Below are positions 6,901 to 20,000 of a DNA stretch of 20,000 nucleotides, piece by piece; the first letter of the stretch is position 1, and every line of letters begins with the position of its first letter. Source of the stretch: an uncultured virus (IMG/VR IMGVR_UViG_3300032167_000096) (taxonomy: Duplodnaviria > Heunggongvirae > Uroviricota > Caudoviricetes); the IMG/VR virus record IMGVR_UViG_3300032167_000096, positions 53,952-73,951 of that record. The stretch is one strand, 5' to 3'. The position numbers and the translations under genes were made by a program. The notes under the pieces are model-generated. The model was given only the letters and a program-made list of their open reading frames with translations. It was not told where the DNA came from and ran no database searches.

Positions 6901-9900
6901 TAAGTGCATTACCCGTGTCAATTGTAGTATTCTTTTCTCTTACAATACCCTTATTAAGTACTGCAATTTTAATACCATTAATAACGCCCTTTACAAGACC
7001 AAGGAACATGCTAGGCAAGTTCTTGATTAGTATTGCTACAAGAGGAGTTACAATATTATCCATTGCAAGACCCCAACCGGCAATAATCTTAGGAACAACG
7101 TCATTTACAAGAATGCCAGAAATTCCACCCTTACCTTCATACCAATCTTTGATCTTGGTAAAGAATCCTCCGATCTTCTCAACAACACCACCAGTGCCTA
7201 AGAAGATTTGTTTCATCTTATCACCAAGGCCACCAAGAAGACCATTCTTTACAACGTTACCATCAGCATCTTTCTCTCCAAATAGGAAAGATTTTAATTT
7301 AGGCCATACGGATGTTTTAATCCATTCAGAACCCCATCCAAGAAGTGAAAGTCCTCCGGCTGCAAGAGCTATCTTGCCAGCAGTAGTTCCAAGACCACCA
7401 GTAAGGAAACTAAAGATACCCTTAATACCTTTACCAATGCCGCCAAAGATCTTTCCAAGGAAGCCACCTCCCTCTTCATCATCTTTGCCTTTCTTCTTCT
7501 TGCCGAATCCTAAGCCTTCGCCAATACGTTGAAGCCATGTTGCAGATTCTCTGGTATTGGCATCATTCTCATCCTCTTCAGCCTCTTCTTGCTCTGCAGC
7601 TTGTCTAGCTTCAGTAGCTTCCTTAGAGTCTTCATCATGATGAGGAATAAATTTAGAAGCAAAGCCTGTAACTGCTTGACCAACTTTACTGCCTTTTGCT
7701 TTATTAAGCATTCTCTGGACAAGAGTAGGCTTGGCAGATCCATCGACCCCAGCTGCTTCAGCAGCTATAACGTCTTGCTGTGCTTCTTCTTTCTCCGCTT
7801 TTTCTCCAGCAGCATCTGCAATCTTTGCAATTTCAGAAGATGCCGGTCCCTTAGGAGCTTCTATAGTGGCAGGAACTCCAGATTTTCCATCAGTTAATTG
7901 CGGAACACCCTTCTGCTGACCTTCTTCATTACCAGGAGGTGTAGTTTTTTCAGCCTCTCCAGTAGGATCAAGCTGAATCTTGATCAATTTGATGATTTCA
8001 TCGATTTTGCTGTTAGCACTCTGGAATTGCTGAGAAACAACATCTGTCTGCTGCTTAGTAGCATCTAATATAGCTGCTTCAGCAGGATGCTCTTTCTTGA
8101 AAGCTTCATCTGCTGCAGCCGCAGCTGCTGCATCTGATTCTTTCTTTTTCTTTTCTTTTTCTGCAGCTTTGGTACGAAGAGCTATTTCTGCATCTACAGA
8201 TCTCTTGACATCTCTAAGACCCTTCTTATCCTTAACCTTATGACCAAGAATTTTAGAGAGTCCCTTATTGCCTTTTTTAAGATCTGCATTAGCCTTCTTA
8301 AGCTCTGCATTTGCGCCTTCAGCAGCCTCTACTTTAGCCCCGAGACGCTGCTTAAGATCTGCTTTTTCTACAGGAGTGAGATTAGGCTCTGCATCAATAA
8401 GACGGTGCATCTCTTCAAGATCTCCGTCTGCTCCAGCGCGAGCAATCTTCTTTACATATTTAAACTTAGTGACATCATATCTTAATGTGCCATCAGGGTT
8501 TGTTTCGTTAAAGAATGCAGAGATTTCCCGACCAAGCGCACCTCTAGCTTCAACTACAGCTTTACTTGCAGTTTGACGACCTTCAAGAGTTCCGCCAGCT
8601 TGAGCAGACATTGCTTGAAGTTCTTCAAGAGAAGCATTTGCAAGATACTCGTCTTGTTTCTGCATCTTATCAGCACCACGTACTTTGGAAAAGTAGTTAC
8701 GAACGCCATGCTTCTTTCTAAAGTCTAGACGCTCTTGTGCTGTCATATCTCTAGCTTTACCCTTATTGATTTGCCCCATTCTCATAGAATTGCCAATAGC
8801 ACCAAGAGCTTTGAAAGGAGCTGCTACAGCAACTTTAGCAATCTTAAGAGGGAACTTCAAGATGTTGAAGAACAACTTAGTCATCGGTTTGAAGACTTTC
8901 TCCTGAAGGAAATCATGAATCGGGATTCCGAGATATTTTTCAGCAACACGATTAAATGCATCTTTAACCCCATCGCCGATAGAGGTTATCATATTCTTTA
9001 GACCTTGCTTAAAAGGCTCCCAGAAATTCTTAAGAGGCTCAAGAAGATGCTTCTTAGCATATCCTTTAAATCCTTCAAGAATCTCATTAATCTTTTCTTT
9101 AGCAGGTTCAAGAATACCTCTCTTCATTGCACCAACAAGGCTACCCTTCTTAGGATCGTCAGGATCACCAAATACAAACTTATGAAAAGCAGAAGTACTA
9201 GAAAGCAATCCAACTCCAGCACCCATAATTGCATTACCAAGAAGACCAAAGGGCCCCATAAGAATACCAGCACCAGCACCAATAAGCATACTAGGAGCTG
9301 CTTTCTTAAGGTGTTTCTTAAACTTATCAAAGGATTCTTTCTTTAAGAATCCACCCTTACCATCCTTGTCACCGAATACAAATTCTTTAAACTTTTCATT
9401 ATTCTTTAAGAATCCGATAGAAGAACCGATAATAGCACCGCCAAGAGGTCCAAGAGGAGTCACAAGACCCAATAGACCACCAGCTATACCAAGATCTGTC
9501 ATATCTTTACCAGATTTCTTAAACATATCCACAAGACCCTTAGGCATCAGGCCCTTCTTATAAGTACCATCTTCCATCTCTTTACCAAAGAGAGCAGTCT
9601 TGAGAGTATCAGAACTTTCGATAATAGAAATACCAGCACCTGCCATAGCACCAAGTAGAGGGTTGAATCCGGTCAAAAGACCAGCAGCTCCACCAAGAAT
9701 ACCACTTGCGGCAGTTCTAGCACCTTTACCTTTATTCTCTTCCATGATCTTACGAAGGTTTGCCTTCATTTGATCAGTATTTACAGTACCTTTAGCATTT
9801 AATCCAATAGCATTGATTATTCTTCTACGATCTCTTCTCTCAAGAGCCTCCATAGCCTGCTGCTCTCTAGGATCGAAAGAAGCAGGAATAATCATTTCGC

Positions 9901-12508
9901 CAGGAGATACCATGGTAAGACCACGCTTGGTTGCATAAGTTCCGCGAGCATTAGTATCAACAACATCTTCTCCAGATTTAGCTGCTTCAACAACTTCTCC
10001 TGTAGGAACTACTTCACCCTTTTTCATACGGGTCTTTACAGTATCATAAGCTCTGCCAAATGTATTTCCAACTCCTTCTTTGAAACGACCAAAACCTTTC
10101 TTTGCCATTCCGAATACCTGATCTTTAACAGGCTTTCCGTACTTTTCCCAAAGAGGCTTAATCTTTTCTTTGAAGAAATCAGATATAGTATTTTTAACGT
10201 TCTTAAATTGCTCTTTAAACCAGTTTCCGATATCAGCAAAGGTATCTTTAACCTTCATAGTGATATACTGGAATACGCTCTCGACTTTGTTTCCATCTTT
10301 ATCCTTAAGATCAAGAGTGCCAAACATCATCTTGAACATGCTTTCATCAGCTTTATTAATAAGCTTAGTGACATAGTTTAAAGGCTTGGAGACAATATCG
10401 GCAGCGCCGCCAAGCATCTTACCGAAAAGTTTGCCTATAGGAGAGTTGCCCATCTTGTCGCGAACCCAGTCACCTAGACCTTTTTTCTTAGTACCAGATG
10501 CAGCCCTAGCTGCTTCATCAGCCTTAAGACTCTCCCAAACATCATCCCCTAATGGGCCATCATCATCTGAGGCCGGGTCAGGGTCGCCGCCAGAATCATC
10601 TGAACTTTCAGATCCGCTTCTGCGACTTCCTCCTTCTCTATGAGATGACGGTGTTCTAGTATTGGCATAACATCTATTTTTATTCTTCTTATTATGCTTA
10701 AGAGTAATAGCATTAAGAATTTCTCTAAGATAATGGAACACATTGTGTCCTTGTTCATCTTTACTAAGAGATAGCCATCCAGAACCTTTTGCAAGACCAG
10801 TATAATCAACACGTTTGCCTTTACCAGAAGGATCCATTTCAAAAGCTCCATTATAGAGCTGACGGCTAATACCACCATTGGCTTCTTCGGCAAGACGAGC
10901 ATTTGATACACGCTGTCTAGCATCCATATTTGATTTAGCAATATCGCGAACAGTAGTTCTGCTCATACGTCCATATGCTAAATCGAAATCTCTTTTACTC
11001 TTGAATCCATAATGTTTCCAAGCATCAGGATCATTAGGTCTGAAATCTCCACCATCTTTATAAATCTGCATAATCATTCTATCAACAGATTTGGACATGG
11101 ATCTCGCCTGTCCTTCGTTTATAGCTTTTAGCTGATCAATAAGAGGTTGAATATCAGACTTAATACTACTATTTGCATTTGCAATAGCAGAAGTTTCTAC
11201 GGCATCATATTCCTTAGCGATTCTTCTAGCACCTTTCCAAGTACCACCTTGATAATCATAGTAACGTTCATCATTACCTGTCAATGCGGCTTCGATTCTA
11301 GCAAGATAACCAGGAATGGTTTCAATGATAGCTTGACGAGTAATACCGTCAAAGGGGACAGCATCCTTCTTATACTTTGAAGGATCAATATTATCTTTCT
11401 TAGCAATATCAATACCAAAAATAGATGCTACGATATCCCAAAGTCCTCCGCTAACATCATTTTTCTTAGTATTCATTCTTGCAACGAACTGCGAGAACAT
11501 GCTCGTCAGCCCCTTATCAAAAGATTTTAAAGACTTCTTAAAGTCTTTAGACATGATATTATCAATCATAAATGAAGTGAAGATCTTCATTGGAGCTGCT
11601 GCGAAAGCCATGAAGGGGTTACCTCCACCGAGATCGAAACCTCCAATGCCGTATTCACTCATAAGATTGCCAATATTGCCTTTTACATTCTTAAAATATC
11701 CGGCAATATCAATTCCTCCACCAGCAGTGAAGGACTGATCAAGCTTGCTAGGCTTAGCAGCTTCCTGCTGTGCCTTATACAGATTTCTCTGCATTTCAAG
11801 CATTTCTTTCATCATACCCTGAGTCTCTTCAAGAGATCTAAGGCTAGCCTCATAGTATTTTCTGGAGTTCTCCATATGGGAAACAAGAGGACCATTGAGG
11901 AACTTATTTACAGAATCTACTGCGGTGTAAACACTTCCCATACTAGAAGAAATGATAGAAGCGCTTCTATCCATTTGAGCCATCATGAGTTGTGTTGAAG
12001 CCTCATTAGACTGAGTAACCAGTCTAACACCTTTTGCGACAGTGGAATTAGTTGACATGGCAGCGGCCCCAATAGACTGATCAAGTCTATCGGACATAGC
12101 ATTTGTTGAAGCGATAGTTGCTTTGGTACCATCATCTACGCTTTCATTATCCCAAGAAAAATCAAGATCATCATCACCGAAGCCTTCATCAAGACCAAGG
12201 ACCTGATCACTGTAGTCTCTTTCATTATAGAATTTACCACTCTTCAGGTCTTCGCCAAGATTTCTTGCGCCGACTTTAATAGCTTGATAGAGATTACTCT
12301 GCTTAATGCTCTTGGCAGCATTTCTAGCAGTCTGGCGATAATTCTTAGCACCAGAATAAGATTCTCTGAAAATATCATTATTTGTTTCAATAAAGTCTTT
12401 AATACCAGATGTATTTTCGGACACAGCGTCGATTGTGGCAAAGGCTAGCGACTTTCCCACATTAGCGACATATCTAGTTACTTTAGGTAATTTTAATTTG
12501 GCGGCCAT
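911..12508 (-). CDS. Giant (~3865 aa) tape-measure/ejection-type virion protein with C-terminal C39-like peptidase and tail-lysozyme-like domains
   Basis: 11.6-kb ORF. AGGAGG (12524-12519) is 1 nt from ATG 12517 but 10 nt from ATG 12508, so the MAAKLK start is preferred. Ala/Gly/Lys-rich with periodic Trp/Phe, Gly-zipper segments, a GEMIIP motif (~9885-9905), 75-aa repeats and C-terminal hydrolase-like domains. Confidence 0.8.
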   Translation of the reverse strand: MAAKLKLPKVTRYVANVGKSLAFATIDAVSENTSGIKDFIETNNDIFRESYSGAKNYRQTARNAAKSIKQSNLYQAIKVGARNLGEDLKSGKFYNERDYSDQVLGLDEGFGDDDLDFSWDNESVDDGTKATIASTNAMSDRLDQSIGAAAMSTNSTVAKGVRLVTQSNEASTQLMMAQMDRSASIISSSMGSVYTAVDSVNKFLNGPLVSHMENSRKYYEASLRSLEETQGMMKEMLEMQRNLYKAQQEAAKPSKLDQSFTAGGGIDIAGYFKNVKGNIGNLMSEYGIGGFDLGGGNPFMAFAAAPMKIFTSFMIDNIMSKDFKKSLKSFDKGLTSMFSQFVARMNTKKNDVSGGLWDIVASIFGIDIAKKDNIDPSKYKKDAVPFDGITRQAIIETIPGYLARIEAALTGNDERYYDYQGGTWKGARRIAKEYDAVETSAIANANSSIKSDIQPLIDQLKAINEGQARSMSKSVDRMIMQIYKDGGDFRPNDPDAWKHYGFKSKRDFDLAYGRMSRTTVRDIAKSNMDARQRVSNARLAEEANGGISRQLYNGAFEMDPSGKGKRVDYTGLAKGSGWLSLSKDEQGHNVFHYLREILNAITLKHNKKNKNRCYANTRTPSSHREGGSRRSGSESSDDSGGDPDPASDDDGPLGDDVWESLKADEAARAASGTKKKGLGDWVRDKMGNSPIGKLFGKMLGGAADIVSKPLNYVTKLINKADESMFKMMFGTLDLKDKDGNKVESVFQYITMKVKDTFADIGNWFKEQFKNVKNTISDFFKEKIKPLWEKYGKPVKDQVFGMAKKGFGRFKEGVGNTFGRAYDTVKTRMKKGEVVPTGEVVEAAKSGEDVVDTNARGTYATKRGLTMVSPGEMIIPASFDPREQQAMEALERRDRRRIINAIGLNAKGTVNTDQMKANLRKIMEENKGKGARTAASGILGGAAGLLTGFNPLLGAMAGAGISIIESSDTLKTALFGKEMEDGTYKKGLMPKGLVDMFKKSGKDMTDLGIAGGLLGLVTPLGPLGGAIIGSSIGFLKNNEKFKEFVFGDKDGKGGFLKKESFDKFKKHLKKAAPSMLIGAGAGILMGPFGLLGNAIMGAGVGLLSSTSAFHKFVFGDPDDPKKGSLVGAMKRGILEPAKEKINEILEGFKGYAKKHLLEPLKNFWEPFKQGLKNMITSIGDGVKDAFNRVAEKYLGIPIHDFLQEKVFKPMTKLFFNILKFPLKIAKVAVAAPFKALGAIGNSMRMGQINKGKARDMTAQERLDFRKKHGVRNYFSKVRGADKMQKQDEYLANASLEELQAMSAQAGGTLEGRQTASKAVVEARGALGREISAFFNETNPDGTLRYDVTKFKYVKKIARAGADGDLEEMHRLIDAEPNLTPVEKADLKQRLGAKVEAAEGANAELKKANADLKKGNKGLSKILGHKVKDKKGLRDVKRSVDAEIALRTKAAEKEKKKKESDAAAAAAADEAFKKEHPAEAAILDATKQQTDVVSQQFQSANSKIDEIIKLIKIQLDPTGEAEKTTPPGNEEGQQKGVPQLTDGKSGVPATIEAPKGPASSEIAKIADAAGEKAEKEEAQQDVIAAEAAGVDGSAKPTLVQRMLNKAKGSKVGQAVTGFASKFIPHHDEDSKEATEARQAAEQEEAEEDENDANTRESATWLQRIGEGLGFGKKKKGKDDEEGGGFLGKIFGGIGKGIKGIFSFLTGGLGTTAGKIALAAGGLSLLGWGSEWIKTSVWPKLKSFLFGEKDADGNVVKNGLLGGLGDKMKQIFLGTGGVVEKIGGFFTKIKDWYEGKGGISGILVNDVVPKIIAGWGLAMDNIVTPLVAILIKNLPSMFLGLVKGVINGIKIAVLNKGIVREKNTTIDTGNALKELNGGVANSNAMYNALGDAKGSVKNMFSTAKSSAAYTANKAAEINYGSLFGVNDAKADETYDANGNKLNKSGQDIMYEDGFLGSKKSTNQLYYDENGNIAIDQYDTWNTTDSLASKGAKVAGRGFLHGLLGRKNPIFTALGKISGKGIGKGTAKVVTGGMGKAAKWSGKIFGGSNKLGQKLNSWMTNTPVYTADEVAKAFGTSADDIAKAMGKKAGYSADDIAKAFGSNVDDVGKFMAKNADDVVEGAAKSATKSKGVLSKIKDKIFGKAGKEAAETAATKTGSKVAKEVVEETAEKVVKNADDVAKHGPKIIAKIKNFFTEIAGNSKIIGFIKKACKKAGTDDGVIKKALSAIADKIGKVATKIGKSGVGKLAGKLAKCIPYLNIALYVADFLWGYNNADTILGVAKGDESFKVGFGHKVLCGLLHLITTNLTFGLVPTETLVDIIVEFLFPLFGLSADELMAARERADDIMDAWNEAHPDDTYTNLEDFNNKDKWWFKAKKAVKGALGKAGTWIKDTAGKAWSGIKSGASTAWEWAKEKASNVWEGVTSFFSNVGSTFGKLFDGFKDTFSAIGKGIGKVLSFAWKGDLKGAYKYSVEENKESPVTSKIANIILGIGKVFYTPVILITSLVGKIKDVFVKLFDAAKQVIPAVGQGMADTFKGAWKGEFCKGQIKSTGNEMLDKVSNAILFVGKIVTLPVQFGAFLIGKVVGAVKKVIDAAKNVLPNVGQGMADTLKKAWNGEFCQGQIKPTGNDMLDKVSEAILTVGKIVTLPVQFGAFAIGSVVRGVKKVIDVAKEIVPNIASGTGQLFAAAWKGEDADVQLKSTDNDLLDKIQNVVFGIVKVVTFVPRTLTYAVGRVVDGVKAVINAAKVIVPNVAKGTGQLFKDAWKGEDNGGELESTGNDLLDKIQNVVFGIVKVVTFVPRTLTYAVGRVVDGVKAVIDAAKKIIPNVATGTKNLFVSAWKGEDNNSTLPSTGNDLLDKIQNVVFGIVKVVTFVPRTLTYAVGRVVDAVKSVINAAKLIIPNIAKGTGDLFVSAWKGQENNSELPSTGNELLDKIQGGIFGVVKVMTFVPRTLTYAVGRVVDAVKSVINAAKLIIPNVAKGTGQLFVDAWKGQENNSELPSTGNELLDKIQGGIFGVVKVMTFVPRTLTYAVGRVVDAVKAVIDGSKKIIPNIATGTGNLFKDAWKGEDNDRTLPSTGTDLLDKIQNGIFGVVKVITFIPRTLTYAVGRVVDAVKTVIDGAKKIIPNILSGTGNLFTSAWKGEESDESLPTTGVDLLDKIQNVIFGVVKVVMFVPRTLTYAVGRVVDTVKGFIDGSKLIFPKVGSAFGTLFTKAWAGEELPSKVESTGNSTCDTIANVIFNIGKVLMTPVTLVIQAIGKIKEGITTAIQKVKDGFTFKDLTSGITEAASNLGEKIKSGISGAWDKISGAFSSAWDTVKGWFSSNASDDAAKMRAHYGLGHKYQSGPELAGMPYGDSTIGKAGCGPVAATNAINRLRGAGSMSVRKAADYAEDKGMTIPGGGTDIGYFKSFLNSQNIDATNTTNRGAIMEALKNGQQVIMLGQDKTNKHGATFGTTPHFVTAIGLDANGNIVVEDPDMPQSSLVYKKDKVLNSMMTSTIVSGKGRGRYGLGDGENGEEEGRKTSFNALMSSFGSLTSSLVKSMFGEDAYNAISGSTSEAEFENPEIAAKLWKYLRSKGFSEHGAAGIMGNIYNSSKFKTANLEDSKEEDLGTDVGYTYMVDRGQKTREQFATDGSGYGMTMWHSANRKRKLYDATVKKGASIGDLDAQMKFLVDNMKSERSSLYSALRGSTDHAAASDAYLKQYHMDDKTDESLDYETPKGYAATIYDTYHGSAHNADFKKNAGRARDALNSYETEDARTSRIMTSAGRANAMAKTVDYATFLQTIVTLLMNISDNSALLVKILDILSSKFNIDIDPEEVNKAANQGKARTERALADLIKKGGGDAGSVSKMLNGSDNEYILTAMAAIAKE
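1335..1830 (-). other. Phage tail lysozyme (Phage_lysozyme2-like) domain, catalytic Glu apparently absent
   Basis: LWKYLRSKGFSEHGAAGIMGNIYNSS...GYGMTMW...RKRKLY...DLDAQMKFL...AASDAYLKQYH matches the family pattern GAAGIxGNxxxES...GYGLxQW...QLxF...FE except at the E, Q and E positions. Boundaries approximate. Confidence 0.7.
2030..2510 (-). other. Peptidase C39-like (papain-fold) domain
   Basis: Q(2495-97)...TIGKAGCGP (Cys 2435-37)...HFV (His 2153-55)...VEDP (Asp 2102-04): Q/C/H/D residues in the expected order. Boundaries approximate. Confidence 0.8.
2700..5200 (-). repeat. Intragenic tandem repeat with a 225-bp (75-aa) unit; 10 in-phase copies plus one degenerate copy
   Basis: The AWxG anchor recurs at 2876, 3101, 3326, 3551, 3776, 4001, 4226, 4451, 4676 and 4901 (exact 225-bp period) and off-phase at 5138. 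Unit approximately IIPNxxxGTGxLFxxAWKGExxxxxLPSTGNxLLDKIQxxxFGxVKVxTFVPRTLTYAVGRVVDxVKxVIxxAKx. Confidence 0.95.
9165..9715 (-). repeat. Three Gly-zipper hydrophobic repeats within the giant protein
   Basis: GILGGAAGLLTGFNPLLGAMAGAG...LFG; GIAGGLLGLVTPLGPLGGAIIGSSIG...FVFG; LIGAGAGILMGPFGLLGNAIMGAGVG...FVFG. Confidence 0.7.
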
Positions 12509-12539
12509 ACCAATCATTCCTCCTTTCTTTTGAGGATTT

Positions 12540-12551
12540 TAATACTATGTT
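12540..12551 (-). promoter_or_regulatory. Putative phage late promoter AACA-TAGTAT-TA
   Basis: Exact AACA-N6-TA about 32 nt upstream of ATG 12508, downstream of the RNAP-gene terminator. Confidence 0.6.
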
Positions 12552-12620
12552 CACAGTATAAAAGTTGGCTAAGATAATCTAATTCGACCAAATTCAATGC
12601 AATTAGAACATTTTAAAATA

Positions 12621-12658
12621 CAAAAATAGACGTAGAAGTGTAAGAACTTCTACGTCTA
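12621..12658 (-). terminator. Intrinsic terminator of the RNAP subunit gene
   Basis: 13-bp stem TAGACGTAGAAGT (12627-39) / ACTTCTACGTCTA (12646-58) with a 6-nt loop, then TTTTTG on the minus strand. Confidence 0.85.
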
Positions 12659-12685
12659 AAATTTATTATTTTTGAAGAAATTTTA

Positions 12686-15600
12686 TCATTCCATATCTTC
12701 CAAAGGAGTCCATGGAATACCCATAATTTCTTTTACCTGACGATCCAATTCTATCATACATTTATTTATAGCTCCAGATGTCCATACGGAAGTAACCATA
12801 CGAGCATTGAATGATCTAGCTGCATATAGAGCATGGATCTTCTCATCAGGTCTATACTCAGAGAACGGCTCATATCCTTTAGGGAAGATGTTTTTAACAA
12901 CGCCTTTATTTGCCGACTGAGCAACTGTCTTATCTCCAACGGAAAGTTTATCAAAATATTTAATATAGAATACAATTTTTATTCCATCATTATTATTCTT
13001 CATAATTCCTGTTGGAGCCATCTTATAGTCAGGATCAAGAAGATTTTCTCCAGGCATATTATGCTTCTTATAAAGTTTTCTAGTCTCTTGAATCTTCTTT
13101 TCATAACTTGTAACAAGAGCTTTCAGACTATCAGACATTTCGTCAATTTCGCAAGTACGATAAATCTTAATATCCTGAATTACTCCAGTATATTTACTCT
13201 TAAGACGAATTCTTCCCAAATCCGATACATATTCTGGATCTGTGATATTCTTTAAGAGCATATTTGCATCTTTCTCATCGAAAGAATTTTGGAATATAAG
13301 TAAAGGATCGCCCTCCTGCACAGACTGCCCAACTTTAACAATCTGATACAAGTTAGTTTCCTTAGAAAGATCAACATCTTTTTCTACAACTACATCGGTA
13401 GCCATTGCTTCAGACAGCCAATCAGATACAGATGTAGAGTCTTCAAAACCTTCATCGGTATTCATAATTGCTACCTTAGCCAAAACTCCCAAGTTGTATG
13501 CAAGATTATCTGTCTCTCCATTCTTATTGGAGAACGAGGTTCTATCATATGCTATAATATCACCTTTCTTAAATTTAGATCCAACTTTAAGATCTGTATC
13601 CAATTTAAGAGTAATATAGAAACCGCCATCAGAGTTCTTCTTGACTTCTTCTTTGAGATCAACATACTCAGATGTAAAAGCTTGGCCCTCTTGGTTGTAT
13701 ACAGGTTTCTTATATGATACAATCATATGACTATTATCAATTATTTCTATAACTTCTCCATCTTCTTTTGCTTTAAATGCAAAAGTATCAGATGCTATAT
13801 GTGCCATGGCTTCATCCGCACCATTGGTAATAAGAAGAGGCATAGATTTTTGAGTTCTCATAGAGTGTTTAGATGTCTGAATAAATGTCATCGCAGAACG
13901 GAACGGGTCATCTCTTGTTGTTCCGAAAGGAGTAACAGCTTCAGTCATACTAAACGTCTTAGTTACAGACATATCATCAGGATTGGTGGATTTGATATAT
14001 CCACGGGTTCCTTCAATGTCCATATCTACGGTTGTCTGCCTGTTGATACCAACGTTGGCAGCAAATCCAGTAGACAATGCAAGTTTATTAATCATTGAAT
14101 CATCATATGTACGTTTATCGAGACCATATGATCTATCAGAGTTCATACCAGAAAGGCCTTTAAACGATACGGAATTAGATGCTTCAATTTCAAGAAGCGG
14201 GTTAAGGATAGACAAATCAGAGGACATTGGGTCTTCCATAATACCATCGATAACAGCACTTCTCTTTATAGAAATACCAACTTTCCTACCACGCTTAACC
14301 TGAGCTTTGTACTCTACATATGCTCTAGCAAGAGCTTTGTAAACATATCCAGCTACAATCTCTGTAGTTCTATAGCGGTTACCAGAAATATCAGTATGAC
14401 GATTATATTTATTATCTGCAAGAAGATTATTTGCATAAATGAGCATTTCAAAATAATCTGAAGGAATTCCACAATACTCACAAACTTCTGCAGTAATAGG
14501 ATCTACGAATAGATCGACGAAGTTATCGAGACCATCGGATAGGATTCTTCCCCCAAAATCATCAAGGAAGTCTAGCCACATGGCTCTCGAATCTACATCT
14601 GCAATAGAATAATTTTCTGTCGGGCATTCTGCAAGACCATTAAAGAGCATGGAAGTTGCATAATTAATAGGATAAACAAATAAACCATCAGAAAATTTAA
14701 TTGCTGCCTCTTTATCGGGGTCGTATTTGGTTCTCTTATCATCATAAAATTTAGCATTAGTATCACACATTATCTTGGCAATTTTATGCAAACCAAGAGA
14801 ATATCCTAAAAGCACAATAAGAGGAATTTTATTCGCAAGAATACTTGCCTCGGAATAATTGAGTCTAGATGCTGGTTTAATACTATTATAGAGTGATCTA
14901 AAGTCCTCAGAAACAAAACCAAGTTCTTTTGCTATTACGTATGATAATAATCCTTGATTATTATCAGCATAATAGCATACCGATTCATCTGCTTTATTAA
15001 TAGCATATGGAATGCCATTCTTCTTTTCAATTTTATAATGAGTATAATACTCATCTTGATTAAAGAAATAGGTCTTTTCTTTTGTTTCAATCCTATTAAC
15101 TTCAGAAGCCAAATCTATATAATCAACAGGAAGTTCGTATTTAGAGCAAATAGCTTTATTATCACCAAAATATACTTTAATTGCAGCATTATTTTCATGC
15201 TTTCTTAAAGCTTTTAGAAGCTTATCCACAGATGGATATGATCTTCCTTGTAAGCCATGACGGCGAATAAATATTTTGTTATAGTTACTTACGCACTGTA
15301 CAGTGTCTTCATCTGTTTTAAGACAAGGAAGTAAAAGAAGCTGTCCAGACATAACCTTTTCATTTCCACGAAGTCTCATGAAACGATTATTTTTAAATTT
15401 CGGCACATCAAATACAAGTGTAGATCTCTTACCAAAACCATCTTCAACAGTCACAGTATAAGTTTCAATATAGTCCATATTAGTAGAAGTATCTTCCACC
15501 TTAGTTTCGACTACATTAATAGGATAGCTTGTTTTCGAAAGATGATAAAGAGCAGCATAAATATCTGCACTAATATTATACTGATTATTGAAGCTAAGAA

Positions 15601-16483
15601 ACTTCATATCGTCCCATTCTTCATTAATCGAAGTCACCTTCAAATGCTTAGGCTCAAGCTTAACTGCTGGTTTTGAAATGAGCTGACGTATAGTCTTATC
15701 TCCAACAACTTTCTTATTTAAGAATTCATCATTGAGCTTGGACATTCTTTCAGTTCTAGCCGCATTAAATTTGGGCTTGCCATCATCTTCTTCATCAAGT
15801 TCAGCAATAAGAGATTTAATATACTCATCAGAATTTAATTTCTCCCATGCTTCTTCTTCAGTTTCTGAAGATTCAGACGCTGCATTAATAGCATCAATAA
15901 GATCCTGTTTCTTTGCCTTGGTTTCTTCCTTATCTGCCTCTTTCGTATCCGTAACAACATCTTTAACTGGAGATTTATTTTCATTATCATCCTTCGATTC
16001 GGAAGAAAATCTCTTAACAGTTGGAGTTGCATTCATTATAAGAGTACTTATTAGCTCAGAAACAATCTTATATTCCGTTGCCTTATATTGATCTGCATAA
16101 AGTGCAAAACTTTCTTTATTTTCATTATAAAAAATAAAGATATAATCTGAAAATACTTTCTTAAATTCTGTAGGAGCTTTCTTTATATATCTACAAATAG
16201 CTCCGAGAGGAGTTTTAGATTCCTCAATAGCATTTTGATCTTTCCTATACCATTTCGATACAGGAATATAAATGATCTTTTCTCTATAACCTTCAAGTTT
16301 TTGGCAAAGGTTTTTTAGAGAATTCATATAAGCCTCATCTTCTTTATATTGAATAGAGGAAGTATCTATAATGGCATTTTTGCCATTAAGCTCTTTTATC
16401 GAATCAGTAGTATTCTTAATACCTTTCTTTTTCAAGGAATTAGCAATTACCTGATCCAATACTGCTTCATTATAGGAATACAT
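12686..16483 (-). CDS. rpoB: Phage-encoded multisubunit RNA polymerase beta-like subunit (large fragment; probably virion RNAP, phiKZ gp178-type)
   Basis: Divergent beta motifs in order: FMRLRGNEKVMSGQL, AANVGINRQT, TPFGTTRDDPFRSAM (cf. PFLEHDDANRALM), EGFEDS (cf. GYNFEDS), VKVGQSVQEGD, VGDKTVAQSANKGVV (cf. GDKMAGRHGNKGV), SFNARM (cf. GVPSRM). Lacks the C-terminal beta part and has a ~300-aa N-terminal extension. AGGAGG RBS 9 nt upstream. Confidence 0.92.
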   Translation of the reverse strand: MYSYNEAVLDQVIANSLKKKGIKNTTDSIKELNGKNAIIDTSSIQYKEDEAYMNSLKNLCQKLEGYREKIIYIPVSKWYRKDQNAIEESKTPLGAICRYIKKAPTEFKKVFSDYIFIFYNENKESFALYADQYKATEYKIVSELISTLIMNATPTVKRFSSESKDDNENKSPVKDVVTDTKEADKEETKAKKQDLIDAINAASESSETEEEAWEKLNSDEYIKSLIAELDEEDDGKPKFNAARTERMSKLNDEFLNKKVVGDKTIRQLISKPAVKLEPKHLKVTSINEEWDDMKFLSFNNQYNISADIYAALYHLSKTSYPINVVETKVEDTSTNMDYIETYTVTVEDGFGKRSTLVFDVPKFKNNRFMRLRGNEKVMSGQLLLLPCLKTDEDTVQCVSNYNKIFIRRHGLQGRSYPSVDKLLKALRKHENNAAIKVYFGDNKAICSKYELPVDYIDLASEVNRIETKEKTYFFNQDEYYTHYKIEKKNGIPYAINKADESVCYYADNNQGLLSYVIAKELGFVSEDFRSLYNSIKPASRLNYSEASILANKIPLIVLLGYSLGLHKIAKIMCDTNAKFYDDKRTKYDPDKEAAIKFSDGLFVYPINYATSMLFNGLAECPTENYSIADVDSRAMWLDFLDDFGGRILSDGLDNFVDLFVDPITAEVCEYCGIPSDYFEMLIYANNLLADNKYNRHTDISGNRYRTTEIVAGYVYKALARAYVEYKAQVKRGRKVGISIKRSAVIDGIMEDPMSSDLSILNPLLEIEASNSVSFKGLSGMNSDRSYGLDKRTYDDSMINKLALSTGFAANVGINRQTTVDMDIEGTRGYIKSTNPDDMSVTKTFSMTEAVTPFGTTRDDPFRSAMTFIQTSKHSMRTQKSMPLLITNGADEAMAHIASDTFAFKAKEDGEVIEIIDNSHMIVSYKKPVYNQEGQAFTSEYVDLKEEVKKNSDGGFYITLKLDTDLKVGSKFKKGDIIAYDRTSFSNKNGETDNLAYNLGVLAKVAIMNTDEGFEDSTSVSDWLSEAMATDVVVEKDVDLSKETNLYQIVKVGQSVQEGDPLLIFQNSFDEKDANMLLKNITDPEYVSDLGRIRLKSKYTGVIQDIKIYRTCEIDEMSDSLKALVTSYEKKIQETRKLYKKHNMPGENLLDPDYKMAPTGIMKNNNDGIKIVFYIKYFDKLSVGDKTVAQSANKGVVKNIFPKGYEPFSEYRPDEKIHALYAARSFNARMVTSVWTSGAINKCMIELDRQVKEIMGIPWTPLEDME

Positions 16484-16510
16484 GTATCTCTACCTCCTAT
16501 CTAAATCACT

Positions 16511-16522
16511 TATTATTAAGTT
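16511..16522 (-). promoter_or_regulatory. Putative phage late promoter AACT-TAATAA-TA
   Basis: Motif lies between the upstream terminator and the RNAP RBS, about 28 nt from the ATG. Confidence 0.55.
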
Positions 16523-16530
16523 CTGAGTAC

Positions 16531-16566
16531 AAAAAAGAACAGGGAGTAAGGAAACCTTACTCCCTG
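16531..16566 (-). terminator. Intrinsic terminator of the 195-aa gene
   Basis: 12-bp stem CAGGGAGTAAGG (16540-51) / CCTTACTCCCTG (16555-66) with a 3-nt loop, then TTCTTTTTT on the minus strand. Confidence 0.9.
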
Positions 16567-16571
16567 AGTGT

Positions 16572-17159
16572 TTATGCAGTTTCATTTAGAAACCTAACAC
16601 TTGAGAATATTTTGGATTCTTCATAAGCTTTCAATGGCCTTGAGATATAGATAAAATTATTTAAAGGTCCTAATTTAAGTCTCTTAGGCATTTTACTGCA
16701 TCTATAATTAAATGCAGCATCCTCCAAATGTAATGACTTAAAAGGTTTATCATCATAGCATTCTGATTTCAATTCTGTATAATTTAGTAAACAAAATCCT
16801 AATATAATGCGACGATCTAACTCATCAGTTTCTCTTATAAGATACTTATGATCTAGTTTATCTATACTAACTCCTCCGCGTGGATGGAGAAGAATTCTTA
16901 CCAAGCGTCCACTTGGAAGTCTGTAATAGATATTGGTATCTCTCATATTGAGAACTGATCCAACTTGCCTTGTTATATAAAGTGTGTAGTTTGGAACATT
17001 TTCAAGATCTTTAAAATCAGGTCTTACATTAGTTTCCATTCTAGCATAAGCTCTAGGGATATGAATAGCATAACTATACTTGCCTCCTTCCTCATCAATC
17101 CTTACATCTTTATAATCTTCATTGAAAGATCTACGTCTTTCATCACAATAAATAGACAT
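16572..17159 (-). CDS. Hypothetical protein (195 aa)
   Basis: ORF with an AAGGAGG RBS (17176-17170) and its own terminator. No family recognised. Confidence 0.75.
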   Translation of the reverse strand: MSIYCDERRRSFNEDYKDVRIDEEGGKYSYAIHIPRAYARMETNVRPDFKDLENVPNYTLYITRQVGSVLNMRDTNIYYRLPSGRLVRILLHPRGGVSIDKLDHKYLIRETDELDRRIILGFCLLNYTELKSECYDDKPFKSLHLEDAAFNYRCSKMPKRLKLGPLNNFIYISRPLKAYEESKIFSSVRFLNETA

Positions 17160-17189
17160 GATATAAATTCCTCCTTATGGAAAATAAAT

Positions 17190-17232
17190 AGAGAAAACTT
17201 TTAAAGCTTTCTCTTCAAATTTATAATATATA
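17190..17232 (-). promoter_or_regulatory. Candidate early-type promoter (TATATATTAT) followed by a 5' leader hairpin
   Basis: Minus strand TATATATTAT at 17232-17223, then hairpin AGAGAAAGCU-UUAAA-AGUUUUCUCU (17214-17190). The G.U pair works only on the minus strand. Confidence 0.4.
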
Positions 17233-17303
17233 ACCATAATGAAGAACCTTACATTTGCCTACGATACTGGCGGTAAAGAATTATAGACTTTTACATCATC
17301 TGA

Positions 17304-17315
17304 AACTATATTATA
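17304..17315 (+). promoter_or_regulatory. Putative phage late promoter AACT-ATATTA-TA
   Basis: Same AAC(A/T)-N6-TA motif, 100 nt upstream of ATG 17415. Confidence 0.45.
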
Positions 17316-17347
17316 AGCTGTTAATTTCTCATGAGCTAAAATAGTTG

Positions 17348-17394
17348 ATTGTACATACTGCCTGTTGAAATGGCGGTATGTACAATATATTTTT
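17348..17394 (+). terminator. Terminator-like hairpin in the 5' leader of the endonuclease gene
   Basis: 15-bp stem ATTGTACATACTGCC (17348-62) / GGCGGTATGTACAAT (17372-86) with one U.G pair on the + strand, followed by ATATTTTT. Confidence 0.6.
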
Positions 17395-17414
17395 GTGATA
17401 AAGGGGTGATTATA

Positions 17415-18230
17415 ATGATAGAACCGATGAATCCTTTATATGAAACATTAAAACTAGAAATAAAGCGGTATGAGATTCAAGAGCAGCTAGCATTTGACGA
17501 AGTATTACAAGAATTAAGAAGAGATCGAGTAATTAATATCTACAACACAACTTCATCAGATAATAAATACACTGGAAATGTATTCTTATCTAAAAACTGT
17601 GGCGAGTTTATGGTAACTGAGTATTTTAATTATGACAAAATAGCTGTTATATTTTTAAATAGCGGTTATCGAATGCTTGCTAGAGCAAATAATATTAATA
17701 AAGGCGAACTTAAAGATCCATATGCTAAATCTATCTTAGGAATAGGTTGTATTGGCGTTGGACCTTATAGGGTCGATGGAAATCCATTTGAAAGAATGGT
17801 ATACTCTAGATGGCGAGGAATCTTAGATAGATGCTATGTAAAGAGAGAAAGACACAAAAGTGTACACCCAGAATGGTGGAACTTTCAGTACTTTGCTGCT
17901 TGGTTTACAGCATCTTTTTATTCGGTACCTTACAATTCTATGTATGATATGGTTGTCGATAAAGACGTCCTTTGCCCAGGAAATGAGGAATACGGTCCTT
18001 ATAAATGTCTTATACTTCCGAACTTTATAAATGCAAAAGTTCAAGTAAAAGACTTTGAAAAAGACCGCATTGAAGCTCTTATGAGTGGGCAGATGTCACA
18101 ATTCGAAATTTTAAAACTTTTTAAGTATAAAGAGGCTAAAGAGAGTCGAATACGATCGCTAGCTGATGAAAATCGAAATATTTTACCGCCACATGTATTT
18201 TTGGCAATAAAGAACTATCGACTGTTCTAA
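17415..18230 (+). CDS. Putative free-standing HNH-type (homing) endonuclease, 271 aa
   Basis: Pattern YSRWRGILDRCY...EWWNFQYFAAWF...VDKDVLCPGNEEYGPYKCLILPNFIN matches phage HNH-like endonucleases (YxxWxxMLxRCY...WxxFxxFxxW...DKD...GNxxYxPxxC...N). Start moved to ATG 17415 after the AAGGGGTG RBS; the track's TTG 17349 lies inside the hairpin. Confidence 0.7.
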   Translation: MIEPMNPLYETLKLEIKRYEIQEQLAFDEVLQELRRDRVINIYNTTSSDNKYTGNVFLSKNCGEFMVTEYFNYDKIAVIFLNSGYRMLARANNINKGELKDPYAKSILGIGCIGVGPYRVDGNPFERMVYSRWRGILDRCYVKRERHKSVHPEWWNFQYFAAWFTASFYSVPYNSMYDMVVDKDVLCPGNEEYGPYKCLILPNFINAKVQVKDFEKDRIEALMSGQMSQFEILKLFKYKEAKESRIRSLADENRNILPPHVFLAIKNYRLF

Positions 18231-18253
18231 GAGGGATTTACCGTCCCTCATTT
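18231..18253 (+). terminator. Weak terminator-like hairpin after the endonuclease gene
   Basis: GAGGGA (18231-36) / 7-nt loop / TCCCTC (18244-49), then ATTT, immediately after the TAA. Confidence 0.45.
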
Positions 18254-18301
18254 ACATATTTAAAGGTAGTAAAAGCGTTAATTATAATTCAAAAACGTGA
18301 A

Positions 18302-18313
18302 AACTATTTAATA
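18302..18313 (+). promoter_or_regulatory. Putative phage late promoter AACT-ATTTAA-TA
   Basis: Motif 25 nt upstream of leader ATG 18339. Confidence 0.55.
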
Positions 18314-18338
18314 ATTCCAATAAAGGAGGAATTTAAAT

Positions 18339-18458
18339 ATGATTAAAATTCGTAACACCCCCCCCCCATGTCAAGTGATTCGAAAACTTCTCACGGGGCT
18401 TTTTAACAGCGTTAAAAGGGTATTGATTGTACGGAGGGAGGTGCTCTGTAATGGGTGA
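18339..18458 (+). CDS. 39-aa leader ORF (MIKIRNTPPPCQVIRKLLTGLFNSVKRVLIVRREVLCNG) containing a poly-C tract and overlapping the next start
   Basis: Strong AAAGGAGG RBS (18322-29) 9 nt before the ATG. The frame is open to TGA 18456-58, overlapping ATG 18451 (ATGGGTGA). Too short for the ORF track. Confidence 0.7.
   Translation: MIKIRNTPPPCQVIRKLLTGLFNSVKRVLIVRREVLCNG
18358..18367 (+). repeat. C10 homopolymer (candidate slipped-strand phase-variation tract)
   Basis: Ten consecutive C in AT-rich DNA. No comparable G/C run was noticed elsewhere in the window. Confidence 0.85.
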
Positions 18459-19902
18459 AGCTTTAATGTCCCGTTATGGTGGAGGTTCATCTTCCTCGGA
18501 CGAAAAGATTATTGCGCAAGTTAATGTAACTACTGCAGCTCATGCAACCATTACATGCGCAGGATGCGGAACTGTTCTTCAGAGAACTCCCGCAGATGGT
18601 ACGTCCACTTTCTGGCTTGAAGCCGGCGATTGGGTTATTTCTAGTACCGCTTCTGGATCTAGAAATATTACTATTACGGCAGCAGAAGTGATCGACGTCA
18701 ATCTTACTCAGGTTACCTATGGTATTAGTATCGATATGAGTAATACAGATCCTGAATCTGCAGTTACATACATCGATGATGCTGTAGGTCTTAATCCTCT
18801 TTCGGTAAATCTCGAAACCGGTGAATGTAACTATGGCGACTGGGAAGAGATTATTACCGGCGGATGGGGAGTAAAGCCCTGTCTATATAAAGATGGTGCC
18901 AGATCTGTTTATCTTAATCCTAATAATTATAGCAAGACAGTTACTGGTGCCGATGCCGACATTACTTCTGGCGCTGCTGGAGATGTAATGGTCGAATTTA
19001 AGAAGACTTGGTATAAGTATTCTAAGTCTGGAAATATTCTAACATTCCAGGTTGCTAACTATGACAGATCTGCAGACGGATTTGTAACTTCTGCATTTAA
19101 GACCATGGATGGCAGCGATGGAGTTGCAGGAACTGTTCGCGATTATATGTATTTCGGTGCATATGAAGCGTATGGCGATGCGGAAAATAATAAGGCTCGT
19201 AGCTTGAGCGGTAAGAGTGTAAGTAATGGTGAAAACTATTGGACTTATCAGAACTATCGCACAAATTGCAAAGCTATGGGTGCTAAATATGGCATGGAAG
19301 ACTGGTGTAAGAGATATTATATTCTTGGTCTTCTCATGCTTGTTACCAAAACTCGTGAATGCCAGGCGGCAGTTGGTTATGGTAATATTAGCGTAGGCAC
19401 TGGTACATCTGGATTGATTAATGCCGGTACTATGGACACCAAGGGTCTCTTCTTTGGTGGTAAGAATAAGGGTACTGGAGTTAAATGCTTCGGTATCGAA
19501 AATATGTGGGGTAATACTTATTCTTGGTGTGATGGCATTCAGATTGAGTCTGAATCATCTATTTTGATTAAGGATTGCCCGCCTTATAAAGATGCATATG
19601 ACGGTGAAGATACAAGTTCGTATACTTCTGTTGGTCATTCTTTGCCTGTATGGGAATCTCTGTATCCTACAGAAATGTCTCCTGTACTTGGGGGAGCGGC
19701 TATTTTTGCATCTGTTGGTCAGTCTGATTCTACAATTGGTTGGCCAGATTATCTTTGCGTCGGCGGCGACTCCGGCTGTGTTGCCTATGTCGGTGGTGGC
19801 TACTGGGGTAACCTGGCGAATGCTGGTCCCTTCTGCGCCGTCGTCGACTACAATCCCTACGACAGCATCGACGGTTATGTCGGGCGCCTTGTTGCGGCCT
19901 AA
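18451..19902 (+). CDS. Putative tail fibre/receptor-binding protein with C-terminal C-type-lectin (Mtd/FGE-like) fold; DGR target candidate, 483 aa
   Basis: GGAGGTG RBS (18437-43) 7 nt before ATG 18451. MGEALMSRYGGG start, beta-rich Ig-like segment, YFGAYEA, GIENMWGNTYSWCDG (cf. GNVxEW), and a terminal VGGGYW...AGPF...GRL typical of CLec-fold DGR targets. Confidence 0.8.
   Translation: MGEALMSRYGGGSSSSDEKIIAQVNVTTAAHATITCAGCGTVLQRTPADGTSTFWLEAGDWVISSTASGSRNITITAAEVIDVNLTQVTYGISIDMSNTDPESAVTYIDDAVGLNPLSVNLETGECNYGDWEEIITGGWGVKPCLYKDGARSVYLNPNNYSKTVTGADADITSGAAGDVMVEFKKTWYKYSKSGNILTFQVANYDRSADGFVTSAFKTMDGSDGVAGTVRDYMYFGAYEAYGDAENNKARSLSGKSVSNGENYWTYQNYRTNCKAMGAKYGMEDWCKRYYILGLLMLVTKTRECQAAVGYGNISVGTGTSGLINAGTMDTKGLFFGGKNKGTGVKCFGIENMWGNTYSWCDGIQIESESSILIKDCPPYKDAYDGEDTSSYTSVGHSLPVWESLYPTEMSPVLGGAAIFASVGQSDSTIGWPDYLCVGGDSGCVAYVGGGYWGNLANAGPFCAVVDYNPYDSIDGYVGRLVAA
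19756..19902 (+). other. DGR variable region (VR) candidate with GC-rich IMH-like 3' end
   Basis: Last 48 sense codons: 63% GC, 12% A, 29 end in C and none in A. In contrast, 0 of 40 codons at 19621-19740 end in C. Ends GTCGGGCGCCTTGTTGCGGCCTAA. Confidence 0.8.
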
Positions 19903-19903
19903 C

Positions 19904-19942
19904 CCCTCGAGTTGAGGGTCGTAGGGGGCCGCGGCCCCCTAC
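19904..19942 (+). other. Tandem GC-rich hairpins/cruciform directly after the VR
   Basis: CCCTC-GAGTT-GAGGG (19904-18) and a perfect 22-bp palindrome GTAGGGGGCCGCGGCCCCCTAC (19921-42). Confidence 0.85.
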
Positions 19943-19946
19943 ACTC

Positions 19947-19996
19947 AGTCCCATTACACTAAAGCGAAGCGGCAGCGGAGCGAGTGTAATGGGACT
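19947..19996 (+). repeat. 14-bp inverted repeat enclosing four AGCG motifs
   Basis: AGTCCCATTACACT (19947-60) / AGTGTAATGGGACT (19983-96); loop AAAGCGAAGCGGCAGCGGAGCG; followed by TCTT at the window end. Confidence 0.8.
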
Positions 19997-20000
19997 TCTT

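Follow-up and report, generated by a model that had tools for sequence, protein, structure and literature searches.

In the BPP-1 diversity-generating retroelement (DGR), the order is mtd-VR, avd, TR and brt, where VR is the variable region and TR the template repeat, and an inverted repeat rich in GC lies downstream of the initiation of mutagenic homing sequence (IMH), as described in the sections of Wu et al. (2018; PMC5758913) relied upon here. The same sections report Avd in 74% of DGRs, so that this accessory protein is not strictly defining, and further distinguish an "Architecture A", made of TR-RT without accessory gene (RT being the reverse transcriptase), as well as an avd-less "Lineage 3", Avd-independent retrohoming being suggested. 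Regarding the RNA, the RT-10 motif was tied to the BPP-1 DGR and other RT motifs were speculated to serve other DGRs, in the relevant portion of Weinberg et al. (2017; PMC5737381). The DNA considered in the present work, hereafter the window, is a stretch of 20,000 nucleotides from an uncultured virus of the Caudoviricetes (IMG/VR record IMGVR_UViG_3300032167_000096) and covers the final 20,000 b of a viral contig of 73,951 b, which is classified as linear and as about 30% complete. With a probability of roughly 0.95, its positions 19751-19901 are the VR of an Avd-less DGR arranged as target - TR - RT, which would diversify the ligand-binding face at the C-terminus of a tail protein with a C-type lectin fold, presumably receptor-binding, in an animal-gut phage of about 224 kb.

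As far as BPP-1 is described in the portions of the papers cited above, the likeness is extensive: the VR sits at the 3' end of a C-type-lectin tail gene, presumably receptor-binding in the present case, the differences from the TR are adenine-specific, the TR lies just upstream of the RT gene, the homology ends in a GC-rich stretch, beyond which an inverted repeat, likewise rich in GC, is present for the VR but not for the TR, and a structured RNA is found between TR and RT. The points of difference from BPP-1 are that no avd was found, that about 150 of the 495 aa of the RT form a C-terminal extension, that the spacer RNA looks like RT-18 and not like RT-10, and that the carrier is a phage of about 224 kb encoding a multisubunit RNA polymerase of its own. 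The accessory-free DGRs of Architecture A, as outlined in that part of the literature, share the same target - TR - RT layout, none of Avd, HRDC, MSL or CH1 being recognised here; Lineage 3 is likewise avd-less, the present DGR resembling it in this respect.

The target gene (18451..19902, + strand) encodes 483 aa from ATG 18451, which is where the database copies of the protein begin, or 491 aa from TTG 18427 within the open reading frame (ORF) 18427-19902. An earlier note, made from the letters of the window, had called it a fibre gene carrying a DGR variable region at its 3' end; PHROG identifies a tail protein (phrog_5302, E 4.7e-55), whereas a fibre is not shown. Pfam returned nothing significant for this protein and NCBIfam nothing. 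In the frame of the longer ORF, the 48 codons at 19756-19899 end in C (29), T (14) or G (5) and never in A, with an A content of 11.8% and a GC content of 63.2%, as against no C-ending codon among the 40 at 19621-19740 (T 25, A 8, G 7), so that the counts of the earlier note were all reproduced exactly. Codons with a C in third position number 70 of the 443 elsewhere in the target gene (Fisher P = 9e-11 against the VR part). Along the contig, 27 of 73,808 sliding 144-b windows reach the GC content of the VR and all of them start at contig positions 73707-73786, that is the VR start and the next 79 b, the maximum outside the last 400 b being 56%. The composition switch is real and far above chance. 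Its abruptness is explained by a VR repeatedly overwritten from an AAC/AAT-rich TR, hence not following the AT-rich codon usage of the phage. Taken alone, such a switch would allow a horizontally acquired 3' end, as in a rival explanation that invokes no retroelement and sees here a recombined GC-rich tip or else a diverged duplication of the ordinary kind.

A second copy was reached through related viral contigs, which were searched with the target protein and of which four records were used: L005 and L006, taken from contigs of 80,079 b and 223,865 b and encoding a 100% identical protein, as well as L007, from a 185,246-b contig, and L008, both at about 55% identity. Positions 1-7574 of L006 equal positions 12427-20000 of the window without any mismatch and L006 continues past the window end, thereby revealing the sequence that lies beyond it; L005 and L006 are themselves identical across 14,008 b. 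The TR, which the earlier note had expected beyond position 20000, was found at L006 7860-8010, i.e. 286-436 b past the last base of the window, and aligns without gap (offset 535 b) with the VR at 19751..19901 (+). In L006 the RT gene begins 356 b after the TR, giving the order target gene - TR - RT.

Across the 151 b of the alignment, VR and TR differ at 23 places, each of which is an adenine in the TR: 23 of the 42 TR adenines are changed and none of the 109 other bases (hypergeometric P = 6e-17), the mismatches being distributed as 13/10/0 over codon positions 1/2/3. A non-coding copy next to an RT gene and differing almost only at its own adenines was precisely the check proposed in the earlier note. 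L007 and L008 carry their own VR/TR pairs at the same place, with 27/27 and 17/17 mismatches at adenines, respectively. The TR is well suited to such a mode of variation, AAC or AAT making up 15 of its 50 sense codons, and by computation no adenine change can turn any of its codons into a stop, while the 25 variable codons would allow about 10^23.5 proteins. The VR places differing from the TR span 19757-19874, and the protein variants of relatives extend to the TAT codon at 19876-19878. From there on, the list of TR adenines leaves an adenine-free, GC-rich stretch of 23 b (19878..19900, +) at the 3' end of the homology, which is the counterpart of the IMH, and the homology terminates at the final base of the stop codon, which reads TAA in the VR and TAG in the TR. 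Mismatches at the adenines of one copy only, together with strain variation confined to the codons templated by these adenines (see below) and an RT gene adjoining the copy, refute the recombined tip and the diverged duplication, whose probability is practically nil. An ORF of 174 aa at L006 7629-8153 was rejected as a gene, since it reads through the TR, belongs to no family and has an identity of only 34% over 73 aa in L008.

Within the 73,951-b contig of the window itself, the TR is absent from both strands, a BLAST-type search and an ungapped scan taking any target adenine as a match giving only the self match and chance-level scores, which extends to the whole contig the lack of a second copy reported earlier for the 20 kb; a search with PF00078 retrieved no RT from this contig either. 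This would also be expected of an orphaned VR, whose TR and RT had been lost from the genome or act remotely, the contig end then being more than an assembly break. However, the contig ends at base 20000 inside a T-run, which continues in L006 and comes right after two palindromic hairpins, and assemblies commonly break at such places. Moreover, the TR and RT follow without interruption in two contigs that match the last 7,574 b exactly, and the 223,865-b contig of L006 holds exactly one VR and one TR. An orphaned VR is accordingly very improbable.

The RT gene (L006 8366-9853) lies outside the window and is intact. Its 495-aa product matches PF00078 at 3e-15 (56.9 bits for a cut-off of 29.6) and phrog_1423 "Reverse transcriptase" at 6.8e-78, the NCBIfam matches, to RT models of group II introns, Drt3a and retrons, all staying below threshold; the 328-aa chain 8ub7, named only "Reverse transcriptase", aligns at 1.2e-12. 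The motifs include YMDD, as well as LGYYTSQ where the group II intron-type RT 5hhj has GGNLSP. In the [I/L]GxxxS[Q/P] motif, SQ in place of SP is the signature of DGR RTs. Of 75 loci surrounding viral RTs related to this one (31-43% identity), 49 have an adenine-biased repeat pair upstream of the RT gene; this linkage, together with the SQ motif, places the RT in a DGR-associated clade. Residues ~346-495 form a basic, K/E-rich extension of about 150 aa at the C-terminus (L006 9400-9853), common to L007 only, the RT of L008 having 426 aa and the remaining relatives aligning only to residues 1-345. No family was recognised for this extension (residues 335-495), and the scores of 0.79-0.80 obtained in a protein atlas are at chance level. 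As for the surroundings of the RT gene, an ORF of 111 aa on its 3' side (L006 9935-10270) was considered as an accessory gene and set aside, being 46% identical in L007, not found in L008 and without family. Further direct repeats occur downstream of the RT genes of L007 (9838-9920 and 10351-10433) and L008 (5627-5844 and 5942-6159), with identities of 81% and 75%, respectively.

Variation among near-identical phages follows the TR adenines at both the protein and the DNA level. At the protein level, 11 members of one 90%-identity cluster, including the protein of the window, were compared: the final 50 columns comprise 26 whose TR codon carries an adenine at its first or second position, of which 25 are variable, and 24 others, all constant, the one constant column of the 26 being the codon just outside the homology; in the body of the proteins, 17 of 433 columns vary. 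Of the scaffold residues presumed fixed in the earlier note, AGPF and GRL are indeed invariant, whereas the W of GG..W varies, its TR codon being AGG and the 11 members having W, G or R. Against P0073, the protein of the window shows no difference in the body and 16 residue differences in the tail. At the DNA level, assembled contigs from four public runs of four studies (animal gut and faeces, according to the records) were aligned to L006 6800-8100. The variant places listed amount to 38 distinct ones, of which 27 fall within the 151-b VR block, all 27 at TR-adenine places, and none in the TR; a further 32 variant rows, most of them of run X7, are not part of this list. In run X1, a contig over 6800-7472 has 22 changes and another over 7496-8100, which includes the TR, has none; in run X6, a single contig spans the whole region with 37 changes, and among the 35 listed 25 are in the VR and none in the TR. 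In run X2, the contig over 7449-8041, which again includes the TR, has no change, and the stretch 7331-7448 is left uncovered, one contig ending at 7330 and the next beginning at 7449; such a gap hints at a bubble of the assembly at the VR, though a bare gap is no proof. Proteins with 0 or 1 body differences from that of the window carry 15-16 different VR residues, so the turnover is recent relative to all other divergence and the VR has recently been active in the lineage. The reading of a DGR variable region advanced in the earlier note is thereby supported, the TR and RT being seen in the identical sister contigs.

The product of the target gene was modelled with AlphaFold2 from 55 aligned homologues (mean predicted local distance difference test score of 90.2), residues being numbered hereafter after the 491-aa reading, and the model was compared with VIA-align to 48,161 chains. 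Residues 149-491 (18871..19899, +) are predicted by both VIA-align and Foldseek to form a C-type lectin or formylglycine-generating-enzyme (FGE) type domain with the VR at its C-terminus. The top VIA-align match is TaqVP (5vf4), with Z 24.7 over 265 aligned residues at 3.1 A for model residues 149-491, followed by TvpA (2y3c, Z 14.4), Mtd (1yu0, Z 13.3) and then FGE-type enzymes; the TaqVP, TvpA and Mtd alignments each reach residue 491. Foldseek likewise puts TaqVP and Mtd on top, with E 7.6e-6 for TaqVP, and the C-type lectin fold anticipated from the sequence is thus borne out by the matches of the model to TaqVP, TvpA and Mtd. TaqVP, the DGR variable protein of Thermus aquaticus, is the best structural match and has the VR at its C-terminus as well; it differs in being a bacterial protein of 15% sequence identity, the protein of the window adding an N-terminal beta-sandwich and belonging to the phrog_5302 family. 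This additional domain (residues ~25-95; 18499..18711, +) resembles in VIA-align the Ig-like, CnaB-like and transthyretin-like sandwiches, with Z 6-9.4. The target is presumably a tail receptor-binding protein.

Between the stop codon and the window end, DNA folding delineates three hairpins, all on the + strand, namely a small 5-bp hairpin directly 3' of the stop codon (19904..19918), a perfect GC-rich hairpin or cruciform with a 9-bp stem and a 4-nt loop (19921..19942), located 20 b past the end of the homology, and a long hairpin with a 14-bp stem and two GCGNAGCG-like words in its loop, followed by the T-run (19947..19996). The 116-b stretch folded has a fold z of -5.0. The 9-bp GC hairpin follows the VR and not the TR, and the structure is kept with a different sequence in L007 (11 bp) and L008 (10 bp). 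Of 41 related loci in which a VR/TR pair was detected, 25 have a perfect hairpin (at least 6 bp) after the VR and eight have one after the TR, where it is mostly AT-rich. The long hairpin with its T-run is probably the terminator of the target gene; it may be a terminator only, or it may take part in the recognition of the target site. Equivalents with 14-15-bp stems are found at L006 7521-7570, L007 about 7470-7517 and L008 about 3465-3516, the sequence differing in all three. The loop nevertheless keeps two tandem words split by GCA: GCGAAGCG-GCA-GCGGAGCG in L006, GCGAAGCG-GCA-GCGTAGCG in L007 and GTGAACG-GCA-GTGAACG in L008. The word GCGAAGC forms a very stable DNA mini-hairpin.

Between TR and RT, the Rfam motif RT-18 (RF03021) is matched at L006 8193-8253, equivalent to window positions 20619-20679, with E 0.0015 but a score below the cut-off of the family. 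The cut-off is exceeded in 15 of 18 related loci (L019-L042), RT-18 lying between TR and RT in every case. When L006-L008 were aligned with nine above-cut-off members (12 sequences in all), a UAGUAG...GAAA core was retained, and 7 of the 8 predicted pairs of the stem show compensatory changes. RT-18 is likely the DGR RNA spacer of an Avd-less clade. By analogy with the BPP-1 model, the RT would reverse-transcribe an RNA made of the TR plus this spacer, with random copying of adenines; binding of the RT and priming are the probable role of the structured, RT-18-like RNA that separates TR and RT. The resulting complementary DNA would then replace the VR, and two elements would guide it: the GC-rich 3' terminus of the repeat, which lacks adenine, and the GC hairpin present after the VR only.

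Several observations weigh against the interpretation of 19751-19901 as the VR of an active, Avd-less DGR. The VR is letter-identical in the window, L005 and L006, so these three show no sign of turnover, and the three records may not be independent samples; besides, the variant data come from assembled contigs only, which give no within-sample view. Both points would suit a DGR that is real in the lineage but silent in this strain, its VR being the frozen product of past retrohoming. Yet the RT ORF is intact with its YMDD motif, as are the TR, the adenine-free 3' end and the hairpin, and the 15-16 VR residues that differ between proteins otherwise nearly identical argue for recent turnover; a silent strain is considered improbable, if less so than an orphaned VR. 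Returning to the proposed Avd-less DGR, the TR and RT of the window's own genome are deduced from the sequence of the identical sister contigs and are not within its 73,951-b contig, and the best solved relatives of the RT by sequence are group II intron-type RTs (5hhj, 9e-15). The RT-18 score in L006 is under the Rfam gathering cut-off (32.9 vs 41.3 bits), with no match at E <= 0.1 in L008 or in L011, the L007 stretch as used in the Rfam search. The adenine substitutions of the VR comprise 17 changes to G, six to T and none to C out of 23. Finally, no Avd (PF05635 at E <= 10) was detected in the 223,865-b contig or in the 185,246-b contig of L007, although a very divergent copy could escape, Avd being poorly conserved.

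Concerning the substitutions, the relatives of the cluster hold a few residues that require A-to-C changes (T, L), indicating that such changes are rare and not absent, whether through enzyme bias or through selection. As for the accessory gene, the five ORFs around the cassette yielded no Avd by Pfam, PHROG or NCBIfam, the neighbouring ones being without family; PF05635 had no match at E <= 1 in the records of five relatives, making 0 of 7 records searched in the RT clade. In many relatives, the gap between VR and TR is below 100 b.

Among GenBank phages, the nearest relatives of both RT and target are found in the 31-kb rumen Butyrivibrio phages Arawn, Idris and Closwp03 and in the Lactobacillus phage LBR48. 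The Butyrivibrio phage RT is 36.6% identical over residues 41-341 and that of LBR48 33.1% over residues 1-344, the target reaching 31.8% over residues 96-399. In Arawn, tail genes are likewise followed by a non-coding gap and then the RT, which is annotated in GenBank simply as "putative reverse transcriptase"; neither TR nor VR is marked there. Unlike the phage of the window, these phages are small and their RTs have no C-terminal extension. Since RT and target are nearest to those of 31-kb Butyrivibrio phages, the DGR cassette looks acquired from small phages of Bacillota, so far as protein similarity can tell.

The window encodes an RNA polymerase beta subunit at 12686-16483 (- strand; phrog_3148, 3e-150), whose nearest GenBank phage relatives, at about 32% identity, are Listeria, Staphylococcus and Bacillus phages of 220-275 kb, the cultured jumbo phages with the nearest RNA polymerase beta being Staphylococcus DC4, Listeria LPJP1 and Bacillus Goe21. 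Searches of these three with the present RT and target came back empty, an outcome that carries no weight by itself. Many target homologues are borne by contigs of 108-259 kb. Also present is a tape measure protein of 3,868 aa (911-12517, - strand), which is exceptionally long and has an endolysin-like domain near residues 3565-3733. Directly 5' of the target gene lies an HNH homing-endonuclease gene (17349-18230, +; phrog_2081, 2.4e-26), which is 78% identical to its L007 counterpart as compared with 48-55% for the flanking genes, as expected of a mobile gene. The Staphylococcus phage S6 contains deoxyuridine, as stated in the part of PMC10638138 referred to here.

In its portion covered here, PMC7824862, which surveyed the genomes of 224 jumbo phages, has no report of lectin domains of the FGS type, PMC12880540 holds no mention of DGR, retroelement, reverse transcriptase or hypervariable, and the text considered of Roux et al. 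(2021; PMC8144416) has no mention of "jumbo", "Avd" or "genome size". No DGR in a jumbo phage was described in the portions of the literature that were searched, a scope that leaves aside supplements and large DGR catalogues, the latter of which may well list these contigs. A broader scenario can be put forward tentatively, at somewhat less than even odds, in which an Avd-independent DGR lineage would use the orphan Rfam motif RT-18 as a priming and RT-binding spacer of the template RNA, one branch having been captured by animal-gut jumbo phages of about 185-260 kb with their own multisubunit RNA polymerase, where the RT would have gained a basic extension (about 150 aa) at its C-terminus and the spacer would have expanded. 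Were it true, this would be the first described DGR-diversified lectin-fold receptor-binding protein in jumbo phages.

In terms of novelty, the DGR is of a known type with an accessory-free architecture, the modest extras being the jumbo-phage setting and the placing of RT-18 in DGR cassettes; the knowledge of how DGRs work is unchanged by the present findings. From a practical standpoint, a DGR variable region can be recognised by composition alone, from NNC/NNT codons, adenine loss and a jump in GC, and this worked here though the assembly had cut off the template and the RT, a loss that is common because hypervariable regions and palindromic hairpins break assemblies. For the phages concerned, this locus contributes an active DGR free of accessory genes, by which a large gut phage retargets its tail protein, and it places an orphan RNA motif, RT-18, between TR and RT in what is likely an Avd-less DGR clade.

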